Positions 1,217 to 19,676 of a stretch of DNA of 64,000 bases are shown piece after piece. The position numbers and the translations under genes were made by a program. Within the stretch, counting starts at the first letter, position 1. Each line of letters starts with the position of its first letter. The notes under the pieces were generated by a model. It was not told where the DNA came from and searched no databases. It saw only the letters and a list, made by a program, of their open reading frames with translations. The stretch comes from Escherichia phage JLBYU28, in the sequence record OK272472.1; one strand, given 5' to 3'.

Positions 1217-1532
1217 CTTGTTGTTCAGGTAAGTTCGCTAAGCTTACCCCGCTTTATTCAAGCTGCTTACTGTCGCCAGTAAGTCCAGACTATATCTTCT
1301 ACTTATTTCTAAGTAGCGTACCATTTCGAGTCGCTTGACCCTACACCGCTACATTCATCACGGTTAGTCGTTCGGCATTTAGATGTATTCAAACTCATAT
1401 TCGAAGTTATTTGGCATGTAAGACTCCTATGTTGTATAGTTTCTTACATCATACACCATTTAGCACAGGATTGTCTACATCTGTAGAGTTTCCCTGTTTA
1501 GGCACGTTTTAGATGAGCTATAGAGCTTGTTA
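1217..1532 (-). ncRNA. Group I self-splicing intron in nrdD (no internal ORF)
   Basis: 316-nt interruption between NrdD ...SPMG and CRAFL...; minus-sense R-like element CCGAACGACTAACC (plus 1362-1375) and S-like element GATATAGTCTGG (plus 1285-1296) can pair as P7; upstream exon ends in U, intron ends in G. Confidence 0.65.
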
Positions 1533-2729
1533 ACCCATCGGTGAAATTACCTTACCAGAACGCTCAAAAGCCTCTGCTACAGCACCATGACCAGATACAC
1601 TTAAGAAGTCTGGATACATTGCTTTAGAGCAACACTCAATGGCTTTACTGTACAGGTGACCTTGACAAATATTCTCATCATGTCTCTTCTGGTCATAGAT
1701 ATAAACCAGTTTAGGAAATACAACCGGTTTTTTGCTCTTACCTTGTCCGTTCATACGAACATCTAGGAGAGTACTTGCAATCATATATTGCAGTCGGTTA
1801 TCTTCATTAGACATATCTGAGTCAAGTAACCCGAATGTCAAAGTTGTAAATGCAAAATCCCCACGGCTACAAGGTACGGTATTTAGTTTCATCTCAAGTG
1901 ACTGAAAACCTTGAGTCAGTTCAATTTGTAACTGCTCCATTACATAGTTATGGTAATGTTCTTTAGGAATACCGTAAGATGCTGCTTTCTCAGCATGATA
2001 GCGTAGAGACTTCTTAGCATACGGTACAAGCACCTTATCAATCTCTGCTAAAGTAAATCCACCAAATTGCTGTGCAGTTGCTGAAAGAACTACATCACCA
2101 ATAACCTGTAAGGCTGACAGCACAGACTTCGGTTCACAGTATTCAATGCCAGACATTTCAAAGCCACCTTTCAGTACTTTACCGATGTCAAACAGGCAAC
2201 AGTTGATACCACCAAAAATTAGGTCTCTTAAGTCATGGATGTAGATAAACCCTTTTTCAATGGCTTCGAGTTCCTCTGGTGTTAAATGGTATTGTTTAAA
2301 GATTTCTTTAGTCAGATAGCCACGAATAATTGAACCTTTTGTAGAAATTAAACTGCTGTCAAAGTTAGCATTTTCACGGTCACCTAAGAAGAGTGTATCC
2401 TTAGTCTTCTGGTAAAGTTCATCCCAATTTTGAGCAACCTCTTTACGGTAATTTCTATACGTTGAGTAAGACTCATAAATCTCGTGATTGACTTCTGCCA
2501 AAGCACCCTCAACAATACTGTGAATATCATTTACTGAAACGAGTAAATTATTCTGCTTAGTAGATTTTACCAGAATCCTCATAAATGCTGACTCAAGAGC
2601 TTGAGTAACATCTGGTGGAAGCTCTTTATAACCAACTCTGTTAGCTGACTTTGTGACTGCTGCTAAAACTTTTTTGATATCAGGTTCTTCGAGTGAGCCA
2701 TTCTTTTTAATAATCTGTACTTTGTTCAT
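1533..2729 (-). CDS. nrdD: Anaerobic ribonucleoside-triphosphate reductase NrdD, exon 1 (N-terminal part)
   Basis: 399-aa ORF ends ...SGKVISPMG then an in-frame stop that is the first intron codon; joined to exon 2 gives about 714 aa, typical NrdD length. Confidence 0.8.
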
Positions 2730-2748
2730 TATTGCCCCTTTACATGCT

Positions 2749-2770
2749 AAAAAGGTCTCCGAAGAGACCC
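2749..2770 (-). terminator. GC hairpin with UUCG loop plus U-run (minus strand), just 5' of nrdD
   Basis: Minus sense GGGTCTC-TTCG-GAGACC followed by TTTTT. Confidence 0.45.
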
Positions 2771-2777
2771 TTTCATT

Positions 2778-2984
2778 TTAAATCTTTTTAGAAAACTTCG
2801 CAAAGAGTTCTCTTAGCTTTTCAGTGATACCAAGATGTATCTCTAGGATTTCAAATATAACCCATAGTAACATGACTCCAAACAACAAACCTTGTTCAAA
2901 GTCAGTAAATAGGTTAACAACAAGCATACCAATTACAATAGCTGGTGCATCAATAACCAAACCTTCCCAAAGGCGTTTAAGCAT
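2778..2984 (-). CDS. Small hydrophobic membrane protein
   Basis: 68-aa ORF, hydrophobic core LVIDAPAIVIGMLVVNLF...LLFGVMLLWVIF. Confidence 0.4.
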   Translation of the reverse strand: MLKRLWEGLVIDAPAIVIGMLVVNLFTDFEQGLLFGVMLLWVIFEILEIHLGITEKLRELFAKFSKKI

Positions 2985-3219
2985 TATTCACCTCTGCCAT
3001 AAAATTCTGTAGCGTACCAACAGGTTTTAGGTTTTGTCCATCAGTTTTCATGATGAATGGCATCTGACGAACTGGCATCTGTGCAATGTCCATTAGTTCC
3101 GATAGCTCATAGTCCTGCCCTAACATTCTCACAACATGGTCAATACCACGAGCTTTTGCAAAATTCTTTGCAGTCTCACACTGAGGACATCCAGTTTTGG
3201 AGTAAATTACATAAGTCAT
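2977..3219 (-). CDS. Glutaredoxin/NrdH-like redoxin
   Basis: 80 aa with CPQC active-site motif (SKTGCPQCETAK), adjacent to nrdB. Confidence 0.7.
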   Translation of the reverse strand: MTYVIYSKTGCPQCETAKNFAKARGIDHVVRMLGQDYELSELMDIAQMPVRQMPFIMKTDGQNLKPVGTLQNFMAEVNNA

Positions 3220-15851: not shown

Positions 15852-15910
15852 TTGCTTTTTATAATTTTTTGCAGTAATGTATGTGGTTAATGATTTTAGA
15901 GGGAGTAAAA

Positions 15911-18053
15911 ATGGAAAACGTAGATTTTAAAAACTTACATTTAGTTGGTGATACAGAAACTGATGGTTTACTCCTTGAGTTCACTAAAGTTCACGTAATG
16001 GCCTTTGCAGACTATAAATCTGACGATGAAGAGCCACCTGTATGGGTCTTTACAGATGAGCCTATCCTCGGTCACAAGTACACCAAGTACATTAAGGGTG
16101 GCTTACGTGAAGGTATTGAGTTTGCGTTAAAGGCAAAACGTCTTTGCATCCACAACGGTCTCGGTTATGACTGGTGGGTTTTCAATCACATTGCACCTGA
16201 TTTATGGAACTTTGATAATCCAAAGTGTAAACCGTGGAGTAATTTCTTTCAGGATTCTCTTATCCAGTCTCGTGTTCAGTGGATGGATAGACCAACTCCA
16301 AAGGGTTATAAAGGTGCTCATGGTTTGGCTGCATGGGGTGCTCGTGTTGGTGTTCGTAAACCAGAGATTGAACATTGGGGTGTATGGAATGCAGAAATCT
16401 TCACTCGTGTTGTAGAAGATATACGTATTAACGCCAAAACTAAACGTGCACTTGATAACGAGTATCTCAAGCTTAAGAAGTGTGGCATAGACACTTATGA
16501 AACCTACATGCGAGCTAAAGAGACATCTTTCTGGATGAGCCAGCAAGCTATTAATGGCTGGAAAGCTGATAAAGAGCTTATGGAGTTCCATGTAAAGGAA
16601 CTTGACAAGTTGACTAATGAGCTTGCTTCAGAGGTTGAACCACATCTACCTCCAACTATTAAGACCAAAGGTAAAGTCACTGGAGAAGAGTTTGCAAAAG
16701 CTTGGAATGAGTATGTTGAAACATTTGGTCATGCAGATGGACTGAAGAGGATTACCAAGTATCCTAAGACAAAGTATCGTCAACAGGTGCGTAACGGTGA
16801 GATGCAGACATACGAAATCAAGCCATTTGGTAAGCCAACTACAAAGATTTTTAACATTGAAAAGAGAAATTGCTATACACCAACCAACTCTGTAACTGGT
16901 GAAGAGTACAAGGAAGGTTTTGTAGCAATGAAGGATGCTCGTGCAATTTGCAATGAGTTGAATGCAAAGATTGGTAAGAAATGCAAAGACTGGAAGCCAG
17001 TAAAAACAGTCAAAACTGTGAAGTACTATAACAGCCACGTTGTTAACCACTTTGAACTTGAGTCAAGTCGCTACACAGGATTGATTGATGCACCATATAC
17101 ACCAATTGAGTTTGAAGTTTCTCGTATGACTCAGGTAGCAGTTGTAAAAGACTACTTGAAATCAGTTGGTTGGATTCCAGATGACTGGAACTACAAGAAA
17201 GACTCAGACGGTCGCCCTGTCAAAGTTTGTCGTTTCAAAGACAATAAAAAGATGATTACAAAACATCCTAAGTGGCAGGAGATGGTTGAGCGGTGTGGTT
17301 TGAGCTATGTTGAGCACGAAGGTGTACAGTATATCGAGCATAACTGGTCTGTGAAGAAGTACACAGATTTGCTTGAATCTTGCTTAATCCGTACTTCACC
17401 AAAACTTACTGAGTCATCTTATGATACGATTGAAGGTGAACTTGGACAGAAGATTGCAAAGTACTATACTTTGATGCACCGACGCAGAACTATTGAGAAC
17501 TCAAAGGATGATGAAAAAGGTTGGTTGAACCAGATTCGTCCTGATGGTCGCCTTAGTGCTGGTGCAATGGTGTTTGGTACTTCAACTGGACGTATGACAC
17601 AATATGGTATTGTAAACGTACCGTCTGGTGCTGCTGTCTATGGAGCACCTATGAGGGAGGTTTGGATTTGCGAGGAAGGGACTAATATCGTTTCAGTTGA
17701 CCAGAACTCTGCACAGCTTGTTTTACTGTGTAACTTTATGGGTGATAAAGAGTTCACTAAAGCGGTAACTGAAGGTAAAGAGTCAGTAGAATTTACCAAG
17801 CGAGAAGATGGGAGGTATTATTGCAAACATCTTGATAAGTACCTTAATCCAGAAACTGATAAGTATCTTCGTTATGATGCTGAGAATGACCTCTATGAAG
17901 TCTACACAGGGACTGATGCGCATACACTGAATAGTATTTACTTTGGTCTTAACAAAGAAGAGGATATTGTTCATTGCAGGGAGACACAGGATGAGGAACT
18001 TCTCCACGAGATTACAAAAGGTCGTAAGAAAGCCAAAAATGGCATTTATGCGT
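15911..18053 (+). CDS. DNA polymerase family A, exon 1 (3'-5' exonuclease and most of polymerase domain)
   Basis: RBS GAGGGAG before ATG 15911; Exo I motif HLVGDTETDGL; ends inside motif B (RKKAKNGIYA). Confidence 0.8.
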
Positions 18054-18321
18054 CAGTGGCGCATGTAAAACGTTGTGAATTGCTGGAAGCCTAAGTCTGT
18101 AAAGATATGGTAATCAGCAGCGAAGCCTCTTAAGAGGAACGTTCAGAGACTATCGAAAAGCATACTTAATGTATGAACTGAGTAGAGTAGGGTGGTAAGC
18201 TAATGACCATTCCCAAGTGCAACGGTAGTATTACTACTACGTGATATAGTCCGACACTCCGTAGAAATGCGGAGAAGTTCATAAGAGAACTGGTACACCT
18301 TGCGAGTGTATTGACCAGATG
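18054..18321 (+). ncRNA. Group I self-splicing intron in DNA polymerase gene (no internal ORF)
   Basis: R element GTTCAGAGACTATCG (18141-18155) and S element GATATAGTCCGAC (18243-18255) form the P7 pairing GACUA/UAGUC; exon 1 ends in U, intron ends in G; splicing gives IYALLFGAGDEK, matching T7 DNA polymerase motif B IYGFLYGAGDEK. Confidence 0.8.
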
Positions 18322-18878
18322 TATTGTTCGGTGCAGGTGATGAGAAGTTTGCCAAAACCATTAAGGCAGCTTCTACAGAAGAAGGTGCATTGACTAAGCA
18401 GACCTACTATATGCGTCTGCCAAAGATTAAGAAGTTACTTGATAGCTTAGAAGCCGATTTTAAGGCGTCTAAAAAGGCTCTGGAAGAGGTTTTTGGGAAG
18501 AATTCTTCAATTGCTAAAGGTGGTTATATCAGGGTTGCTGGAGCATGGATATGGTGCAAATCTCCACATAAACTACTGAACTACCTCCTGATGAGTTCGG
18601 AAGCACAGATTCAGAATGAGGCCATCAACCTAGCAGCAAGAAAAGCCTGTGAAGATGGCCTGACAAAACTGAATGCTCGAAAACCAGCTATCGGAGCAAG
18701 GTTACTTCTGGCATATCACGATGAAAATAGTTGGGAATGTCCAGAGGGTATGACACATGATATGAAAGCAATTGCTGACTGGATGTATGGACAAGCTTCA
18801 AAAAACTTAGGTTTGAGGAAAGAAACACTTGTAACTGGTACAGCAAAGGTTGGTAAGTCGTGGTATGAGGTACATTGA
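18322..18878 (+). CDS. DNA polymerase family A, exon 2 (rest of motif B, motif C and C-terminus)
   Basis: Begins LFGAGDEKFAK; contains motif C LLLAYHDENSWE. Confidence 0.8.
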
Positions 18879-18881
18879 TTA

Positions 18882-19415
18882 ATGGATTTTATTTCACAAA
18901 AACGTTTAAAGGAGCTACTACACTATGACCCCGAAACAGGGGTCTTTACTTGGCTTCGTAGAGAAGGTAAATCAAGAGCTGTTAGTGTTTTTAACAGTAA
19001 CTATGCAGGAAAGGTAGCAGGTAATGTTCAGACAGATTCAACTGGTCATAAACAGATTAGTATCTATTTTGACAAGAAAGCACATAAAGCACACAGACTC
19101 GCATGGCTTTATGTATATGGCAAGATGCCAAAAGGTATCATTGACCATATCAACGGAGACTCTCTTGACAACAGGATTGTAAACTTAAGGGAAGCAGATG
19201 ATTTTCAAAGTGCTTGGAATAAAGGTAAACCAGTCACCAATAAATCTGGGTACAAAGGTGTAAGTCTTAAGAAGAAGTCTGGTAAGTGGGTCGCACAGAT
19301 AAGTTATAAAGGTAAGAAGATGTTTTTAGGTCACCATGACACGCCTGAAGAAGCCCATAAAGATTACTGTGAAGCTGCTATGAAACTCCACGGAGAGTTT
19401 GCAAAACTAAGTTGA
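18882..19415 (+). CDS. HNH homing endonuclease with AP2-type DNA-binding domain
   Basis: HNH motif IDHINGDSLDNRIVNLR; AP2-like GYKGVSLKKKSGKWVAQISYKGKKMFLGHHDTPEEAHKDY; starts 4 nt after the polymerase stop. Confidence 0.7.
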   Translation: MDFISQKRLKELLHYDPETGVFTWLRREGKSRAVSVFNSNYAGKVAGNVQTDSTGHKQISIYFDKKAHKAHRLAWLYVYGKMPKGIIDHINGDSLDNRIVNLREADDFQSAWNKGKPVTNKSGYKGVSLKKKSGKWVAQISYKGKKMFLGHHDTPEEAHKDYCEAAMKLHGEFAKLS

Positions 19416-19422
19416 CAAGGTG
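19411..19422 (+). promoter_or_regulatory. TTGACAAGGTG promoter-like motif, plus orientation
   Basis: GTTGACAAGGTG upstream of the small-gene array starting 19467. Confidence 0.35.
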
Positions 19423-19466
19423 CTCAGGGAAGAGTACCTTATACTACATCTTGTATAGGAGGGCTT

Positions 19467-19676
19467 ATGAGCCACCGTGGAAGAACCCATGCAGCGATGA
19501 TGAAAGGTGCTTCAAAGGAAACTATCAAGAATCGTAAGCAGAAGTTGTTTGAGAGAATGAACAGGTTAATTGACAATTCATCTCTTTCAGGTTCTGAGAA
19601 GGTTTTCTTGAAAGGTAATCTGAAAAGTATTGCACAAGAACTTATTGACATTGAATATTGGAGACATCAAAAATGA
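19467..19676 (+). CDS. Hypothetical protein
   Basis: 69-aa ORF. Confidence 0.4.
   Translation: MSHRGRTHAAMMKGASKETIKNRKQKLFERMNRLIDNSSLSGSEKVFLKGNLKSIAQELIDIEYWRHQK

Follow-up and report, generated by a model that had tools for sequence, protein, structure and literature searches.

Escherichia phage JLBYU28 carries a group I intron in its DNA polymerase gene that has no endonuclease reading frame of its own, and a free-standing gene for an HNH-AP2 endonuclease begins directly behind the same polymerase gene. The locus raises the question of how such an intron persists, and in particular whether the neighboring enzyme maintains it. The initial annotation had offered collaborative homing as a possible answer, in which the enzyme would cut intron-less alleles and promote the co-inheritance of the nearby intron. 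We analyzed 64,000 nucleotides of this phage (OK272472.1; hereafter the window), whose polymerase region was 96-97% identical to Felix O1-like phages (Felixounavirus), and compared this region with approximately 260 related genomes. Two introns and variable HNH genes were reported in the genus in the SPJ41 paper (PMC9951933), and the original Felix O1 paper described six HNH genes and no introns (PMC3185647). Our literature search found no analysis of a link between the intron and the position of the endonuclease gene, which we refer to as the slot.

Identity and domain organization of the endonuclease

The endonuclease gene (18882..19415, + strand) runs from an ATG to a TGA codon and encodes a protein of 177 residues in the list of open reading frames. 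Pfam revealed an HNH_3 domain at residues 69-104 (19086-19193, + strand; E = 8.9e-15) followed by an AP2 domain at residues 122-171 (19245-19394, + strand; E = 9.9e-12), and PHROGs matched the protein to phrog_99, HNH endonuclease (E = 1e-70). The catalytic motif was found to be intact in the translation (D88-H89...D95-N96...N101-L102), and the AP2 part could be aligned with plant AP2/ERF structures, for example 7wq5 (E = 8e-6). Nuclease activity of this protein, which we call HNH-A as a member of slot family A, is predicted from its domains and motif. The gene lies outside any intron, and its description in the initial annotation as a free-standing HNH-AP2 endonuclease gene agreed with the domain content and the PHROGs match. 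The start given there, 4 nt after the polymerase stop, is right within counting convention, as the stop codon (TGA, 18876-18878) is followed by three nucleotides (tta) and the endonuclease ATG at 18882. No other HNH-AP2 paralogue was found within the 64-kb window at E <= 1e-3. Taken on its own, this gene is an ordinary example of a homing endonuclease gene of phages, and dozens of GenBank records already annotate the slot gene as an HNH or homing endonuclease. The dN/dS values among alleles of family A and its variant A' were low (0.08-0.24), which indicates that the family A protein is under purifying selection.

A hairpin (GACCCC-GAAACA-GGGGTC; 18927-18944, + strand) was observed inside the endonuclease gene, beginning 46 nt into the reading frame and encoding D-P-E-T-G-V. 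The stem bases, including four third-codon positions, were identical in slot families A, A', B, C and E, while the loop varied, and another Ounavirinae HNH family had an identical stem. When 86 distinct IMG/VR sequences encoding YDPETGVFTW were inspected, three formed the stem, and all three had the same 18-nt hairpin as the window and its Felix O1-like relatives. The T-run on the 3' side of the hairpin was weak. The hairpin might control expression, comparable with the terminator inside T4 mobE, or serve as a joint for recombination.

The split polymerase gene and its intron

The family-A DNA polymerase of the window is encoded in two exons on the + strand. Exon 1 (15881..18053) gave a weak Pfam DNA_pol_A match and aligned collinearly with the bumzen phage polymerase, which is uninterrupted and 907 aa long; the start codon of exon 1 is uncertain, with relatives annotated from the equivalents of 15890 or 15911. 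Exon 2 (18322..18878), recognized from the open reading frame list and Pfam, contains motif C (HDE) and ends with the stop codon described above. The intervening 268 nt (18054..18321, + strand) matched Rfam Intron_gpI (RF00028) with 64.2 bits against a gathering score of 50, and the boundaries were set by alignment to the intron-less bumzen allele. The insertion point lies in polymerase motif B (the O-helix region) and splits a codon, GCG T|TA TTG. A U ends the 5' exon and a G ends the intron, and ligation gives ...KNGIYA-L-LFGAGDE... in frame; the record of phage Meda already joins the polymerase exons. A P1 helix (18048..18064, + strand) could be read between the exon bases AUGCGU (18048-18053) and the internal guide GCGCAU (18059-18064), where a U.G wobble marks the splice site, and a possible P10 pairs CAGUG (18054-18058) with UAUUG (18322-18326) of the 3' exon. 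The conserved core, the U.G pair in P1, the terminal G and the in-frame junction together identify it as a group I intron, which is probably self-splicing because more than 45 isolates that carry it are viable. The statement that the intron holds no endonuclease gene was borne out, in that no + strand open reading frame of 40 or more residues lay wholly within it and only the read-through of exon 1 extended into it, to 18094. The distance from the intron to the endonuclease gene is 557 nt, with the intron upstream.

Additionally, a second group I intron was found at 1266-1616 (- strand; Rfam, 53.9 bits) between open reading frames 1530-2729 and 269-1135, which we tentatively read as the two parts of one split gene for an anaerobic ribonucleotide reductase (nrdD-like). 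The window also contains a cluster of 21 tRNA genes (49287-54034, - strand), which is typical of Felix O1-like phages; 22 tRNA genes were described in the Felix O1 paper (PMC3185647).

Intron forms among related phages

A search of IMG/VR with the exon 2 protein gave 16 loci only, too few for statistics, and the GenBank phage collection was used instead. In that collection, a 3.9-kb query around the polymerase matched 263 phage records, and synthetic concatenated queries were designed so that coverage and span reported the intron and slot state of each record. The intron was present in 96 records among the approximately 260 related genomes: the window intron was 97-100% identical in 85 of them, and 11 more had an 85%-identical form of 311 nt. 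The 268-nt form of the window occurred in approximately 45 records. Another form of approximately 800 nt (780-805 nt) was found in approximately 40 of the 96 carriers and differed by an insert of 534 nt within the loop that closes a peripheral stem, with a 160-aa Endonuclease VII-type reading frame inside; the frame of the BPS15Q2 intron matched Pfam Endonuclease_7 (E = 1e-19). The 534-nt insert is equal in length to the HNH-AP2 gene, but the identity of the two was rejected, as the intron-borne product belongs to the unrelated Endonuclease_7 type and gave no BLASTP match.

Alignment of the 268-, 311- and 802-nt forms located the insert at a short hairpin of the window intron, CCUC-UUAA-GAGG (18131..18142, + strand). 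The 311-nt form retains the stem, the last approximately 13 nt of the Endonuclease VII-type frame and the 3' tail, and corresponds to a deletion between GACTCCTAAA and GACTACCTAAG; by this alignment, it is a visible deletion remnant of the ORF-containing form. The hairpin of the 268-nt form contains a compensatory C-G pair and no remnant of the frame, so this form could be ancestral, or it could derive from an older deletion. In phage VpaE1 (Escherichia phage, NC_027337; positions 2709-3169 of its locus, L033), the Endonuclease VII gene of a 780-nt intron was frameshifted into two overlapping reading frames and the slot was empty; no other sampled genome combined a disabled intron endonuclease with the lack of an endonuclease in the slot.

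The flanking exon bases ATTTATGCGT | TATTGTTCGG were common to all intron-plus alleles, on two polymerase backgrounds, and the differentiation between intron-plus and intron-less alleles was limited to approximately 30 nt on each side of the insertion site. The P1/P10 pairing accounts for the ATGCGT|...|TATTG that all intron-plus alleles have in common. The shared flanks are thus partly demanded by this pairing, while the remainder looks like short co-conversion tracts left by homing at the site. These comparisons indicate that the intron is mobile on its own, separately from the slot gene, and the Endonuclease_7 gene in approximately 40 of the 96 carriers is a simpler source of that mobility than the slot enzyme.

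Two records labeled 'Campylobacter phage A132/A126' (MG065664 and MG065668; host, Campylobacter jejuni) had approximately 97% identity with the Felix O1-like region studied here, and for the intron of A132 the identity was 100%. This suggests a mislabeled host, or a contaminating coliphage or Salmonella phage.

The slot downstream of the polymerase

Comparison of the junctions downstream of the polymerase revealed that genomes either carry or lack the endonuclease gene at a single, exact position. An empty slot reads polSTOP-ttagta-TTGACA, with 6 nt between the stop and the conserved block, and the junction in BPS15Q2 or AYO145A is ...GTACAC-TGA/TAA-TTAGTA-TTGACAAGG.... An occupied slot reads polSTOP-(tta)-ATG...AAG-TTGAca, with 481-534 nt at the same junction and the endonuclease stop codon falling within TTGACA. 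The last codons of the polymerase differ between occupied and empty alleles. We distinguished at least four families of slot genes, namely A (with its 85% variant A'), B, C and E, and all of these, A' included, were found at one insertion point. The families were 39-53% identical in protein sequence and had the HNH_3 and AP2 domains in every case tested. Family E is represented by the slot gene of Felix O1 itself (FO1a gp94); FO1a was intron-less with this gene in its slot, in agreement with the Felix O1 paper (PMC3185647).

The slot families share a common C-terminus, ...PEEAHKAYCEAA(I/V)KLHGEFAKLS, and the terminal 79 nt of the gene (19337..19415, + strand; ...PEEAH.. to ..GEFAKLS) were 92-97% identical across families. 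This stretch is a likely right-hand homology arm. The Staphylococcus phage SA1 record (GU169904) matched the same 79 nt at 96%, which is odd for that host. Further downstream, the conserved intergenic block that starts with TTGACA (19412..19466, + strand) overlaps the endonuclease stop and is followed on the right flank of the slot by a conserved 69-aa gene of unknown function (19467..19676, + strand; PHROGs phrog_5180). The record of phage AYO145A lists a 'promoter' feature among the annotations under the matching region; a consensus promoter scan did not call the TTGACA block as a sigma-70 promoter, and we make no such claim for it.

As judged from its presence or absence at a single site among collinear relatives, the slot gene bears the marks of a dispensable mobile gene. 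At least four HNH-AP2 families at one exact insertion point make the slot itself the simplest homing target, and we infer that it is the homing site of the slot endonucleases.

Co-occurrence of the intron and the slot endonuclease

A full-length A-family gene was present in 57 records. Among the approximately 260 genomes, 32 contained both the intron and HNH-A, 64 the intron only, 25 HNH-A only and approximately 142 neither. The co-occurrence check that the initial annotation had proposed for related phages thus largely contradicted an obligate pairing. The odds ratio for the association was 2.8 (p = 0.001), a value that ignores relatedness. When family A was restricted to genes of at least 95% identity, approximately 42 records were retained, of which approximately 32 had the intron and approximately 10 did not, including bumzen, HY02 and ULIM9.

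The elements were also found in independent combinations. The 268-nt intron occurred with slot families A, B, C and E and the 311-nt intron with A', B and C; family A was accompanied by the 268-nt intron or none, and A' by the 311-nt intron or none. The HNH-A alleles of intron-plus and intron-less genomes interleaved, as evident from a dS of 0.033 between loci L003 and L002. At the insertion site, intron-less genomes with B or C had the same sequence as empty-slot genomes, and intron-less genomes with HNH-A had the same sequence as an intron-less family-C genome, in a sample that includes no empty-slot genome with the 'clade 1' intron-less site. The interleaving alleles, independent combinations and unchanged site sequences do not fit an enzyme that has to be shielded from its own target by the intron. 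The pattern is that of an ordinary homing-endonuclease island rather than an obligate partnership of intron and endonuclease, as far as the genomes can tell. The collaborative homing proposal was therefore supported only in part. The observation behind it, a free-standing gene adjoining an ORF-less intron, stood, while the co-occurrence counts, the intron-borne Endonuclease_7 gene of relatives, the shared slot and the unchanged insertion-site sequence did not support its strict form.

We used a query that joined exon 1, the intron and the downstream gene, which gives a single joined match only if the slot holds no endonuclease gene. Seventeen intron-bearing records gave such a match, and 16 of them had the ORF-containing intron. 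The seventeenth was GEC_vB_BS, in which a deletion removes exon 2 sequence and most of the slot gene. VpaE1 (two records) and EC6, whose downstream genes differ, were added to the empty-slot count. In total, at least 19 of the approximately 40 ORF-containing introns stood beside an empty slot, compared with none of the approximately 56 ORF-less introns (Fisher p = 3.6e-9, calculated on isolates that are not independent). When the records are collapsed to seven pairs of intron form and slot family, or to three to four haplotypes of exon 2, this association is only suggestive. It favors a looser link between the ORF-less intron and the neighboring enzyme than strict collaborative homing.

The Salmonella phage GEC_vB_BS (MW006475; positions 2880-3070 of its locus, L041) had a 311-nt intron followed by the deletion, which joins exon 2 (after ...GAGAAGTTTGC) to the last approximately 85 nt of the slot endonuclease gene and removes the C-terminus of the polymerase, including motif C. 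The record GE_vB_BS (MG969407), apparently the same phage, matched only the last 69 nt of the slot gene. The deletion is either an assembly artefact or the mark of a defective genome. This deletion drew attention to 11 nt of similarity shared by exon 2 and the 3' terminus of the endonuclease gene, which was within chance for a post-hoc find and was discarded.

A hyper-diverse block at the end of the polymerase gene

Sliding-window diversity and Fst across 34 loci (L001-L034) revealed a hyper-diverse block covering approximately 17630..18878 (+ strand). In the last approximately 1.2 kb of the polymerase, the pairwise divergence was 15-25%, compared with 3-5% in the upstream 1.7 kb. Fst between occupied and empty genomes was 0.15-0.47 throughout the block, as far as the end of the polymerase gene, and approximately 0 upstream of it. 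The left border was sharp, approximately 420 nt upstream of the intron site, and nothing obvious marked it. Exon 2 haplotypes followed the slot state, while the exon 1 tree was star-like with the states mixed; simple clonality as the cause of the co-occurrence was rejected by these trees, but linkage over 557 nt was not. Because the Fst block spans the intron site, that site lies inside the block that travels with the slot gene. A looser, trans-homing link, in which the neighbor would aid the ORF-less intron through co-conversion, is favored by this position and by the lack of ORF-less introns beside empty slots.

Discussion

We consider it probable, at roughly 0.6, that a free-standing HNH-AP2 homing gene occupies a fixed polymorphic slot behind the polymerase and that the intron is a separate mobile element which occasionally hitch-hikes with it. 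In a mixed infection, HNH-A would cut or nick empty-slot genomes at or close to the boundary where the polymerase gene ends and the intergenic region begins, and recombinational repair would copy the endonuclease gene together with flanking polymerase sequence into the recipient. The 268-nt intron would move separately, as suggested by the Endonuclease VII-type homing gene in the peripheral loop of the intron of many relatives, and the two mobile elements would make the 3' kilobase of an essential gene a homing-endonuclease island. The endonuclease has no need of the intron, and its target is probably other than the intron site. On this account, the ORF-less intron can persist without a helper, in that it splices and blocks the site presumably cut by the intron-borne enzyme of relatives. 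Since the intron site lies inside the traveling block, slot-gene homing probably carries the ORF-less intron along at times, by trans homing comparable with that of T4 mobE and the nrdB intron.

Under strict collaborative homing, HNH-A would cut the uninterrupted motif B at the intron site, the intron would protect its carriers and both would be inherited as a unit. The layout is that of published cases, with an ORF-less intron and an endonuclease gene immediately downstream (PMC3984707); strict family A is enriched in introns (approximately 32 of approximately 42, against 96 of approximately 260 overall), no ORF-less intron lies beside an empty slot, and the short co-conversion footprints centered on the insertion site imply breaks near that site. 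However, such breaks are accounted for by the Endonuclease VII-type intron enzyme of relatives, and four families in one slot are simplest with the slot as the homing site. Additionally, 25 records combine a full-length A-family gene with an uninterrupted polymerase, approximately 10 of them of strict family A, and their insertion site is identical to that of the intron-less family-C genome, just as intron-less B and C genomes share theirs with empty-slot genomes. With HNH-A alleles also interleaving between intron-plus and intron-less genomes (L003 and L002, above), this explanation would hold only if HNH-A cuts site variants that are absent from its own hosts, and we regard it as improbable. 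Less probable still is a domesticated HNH-AP2 protein that serves the phage as a nuclease or DNA-binding regulator, in competitor exclusion or transcription control, at a position unrelated to the intron. The purifying selection on the protein, the sequence-specific DNA binding of AP2 domains and the conserved hairpin, which hints at regulated expression, are consistent with such a role, but the precise presence or absence, the 39-53% identical replacements and the many viable phages with an empty slot characterize a dispensable mobile gene, and hyper-diverse flanks are typically seen where endonucleases drive gene conversion (PMC10448857).

Endonuclease turnover is more probable than these two explanations, though less so than our preferred reading. 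The intron would have arrived together with an Endonuclease VII-type gene of its own; after a free-standing enzyme had settled in the slot and supplied the drive for the block, the intronic gene would become dispensable and be deleted, an ORF-less intron still able to splice would be left, and the layout would be a by-product and no designed partnership. Barth et al. (2023, PMC10448857) outlined a general route of this kind, with the arrival of a free-standing gene followed by loss of the intronic one, and the distribution also fits it. The genus contains ORF-plus introns with an empty slot (BPS15Q2 and EC6) and with an occupied slot (SPT-1 and DE7), as well as a frameshifted ORF (VpaE1), the 311-nt deletion remnant and the clean 268-nt form, and the ORF-less forms were observed only with an occupied slot. 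Against this, the 268-nt form could be ancestral in view of its compensatory C-G pair and missing ORF remnant, VpaE1 is a case of ORF decay beside an empty slot, and the association of ORF-less introns with occupied slots ignores shared ancestry. Turnover is thus conceivable, though we would not expect it to be the explanation. We put forward with similar reserve a more ambitious reading, namely that the ORF-less intron persists only beside an occupied slot, that the genus keeps every step of the turnover from an intron-borne to a free-standing endonuclease, and that the invariant hairpin is a shared control element. If this were true, the genus would be a ready-made natural system for testing the maintenance of ORF-less introns by trans homing.

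Whichever reading applies, the value of the locus lies in the population dataset. Across approximately 260 relatives, all but one of the combinations of three intron forms with at least four endonuclease families, or with none, are represented. The dataset permits a direct test of how ORF-less introns persist and of whether collaborative arrangements arise via endonuclease turnover, a question left open in a previous report (PMC10448857). The 3' kilobase of the polymerase is a recombination mosaic, and it is therefore unsuitable for the phylogeny or typing of these therapeutic and biocontrol phages and should be avoided for such purposes.

Comparison with known systems

In phage T4, mobE and the nrdB intron, whose own endonuclease I-TevIII is defunct, provide a case of trans homing (Wilson and Edgell 2009, PMC2790892). 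The window resembles this system in that a free-standing HNH-family gene adjoins an essential gene holding an intron unable to move alone, and the intron lies, at 557 nt, well inside the co-conversion range reported for T4 (up to approximately 2 kb). Structure within the endonuclease gene may also limit expression in both, through the internal terminator of mobE and possibly through the conserved hairpin here. Unlike mobE, the endonuclease of the window has an AP2 DNA-binding module, and its gene lies downstream of the interrupted gene, whereas mobE lies between nrdA and nrdB. The intron ORF of the window is cleanly absent, whereas that of the nrdB intron is truncated. The window is also known from its sequence, whereas nicking and cross data stand behind mobE.

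Collaborative homing is reported for F-CphI with the psbA intron of cyanophage S-PM2 and for the polymerase introns of T3/T7-like phages (Zeng et al. 2009; Bonocora et al. 2011; summarized in PMC3984707 and PMC10448857). As in the T7-like cases, the interrupted gene here encodes a family-A DNA polymerase. In contrast to collaborative homing, a target at the intron insertion site, which is its defining feature, is indirectly disfavored here, and the endonuclease often occurs without the intron. F-CphI has an Endo VII-type motif (PMC6083498), whereas the free-standing enzyme here is of the HNH_3-AP2 type and it is the intron-borne enzyme of relatives that is of the Endo VII type. The polymerase intron is also similar to phage polymerase introns that encode nicking HNH enzymes such as I-PfoP3I (PMC3428280): a group I intron interrupts a conserved motif of a phage family-A polymerase gene and, in relatives of the window, would be mobilized by an endonuclease of the HNH/Endo VII superfamily. 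Unlike the intron of I-PfoP3I, the window intron has no ORF and the adjacent enzyme is encoded outside the intron.

HNH-AP2 homing endonucleases were reportedly described by Magnani et al. in 2004. The slot gene shares with the HNH-AP2 enzymes of 'HEG islands' an N-terminal HNH and a C-terminal AP2 domain, and its setting is that of such islands, beside a DNA polymerase gene with other mobile elements nearby and with low-identity cognate endonuclease genes at the same position and sharp shifts in identity at the borders (PMC10448857). In contrast to the divergent ICP1-type (IPA-HNH) proteins, the HNH part here matched Pfam HNH_3 directly. Unlike the HEG islands described previously, the locus comes with approximately 260 genomes that offer combinations of intron form and slot family.
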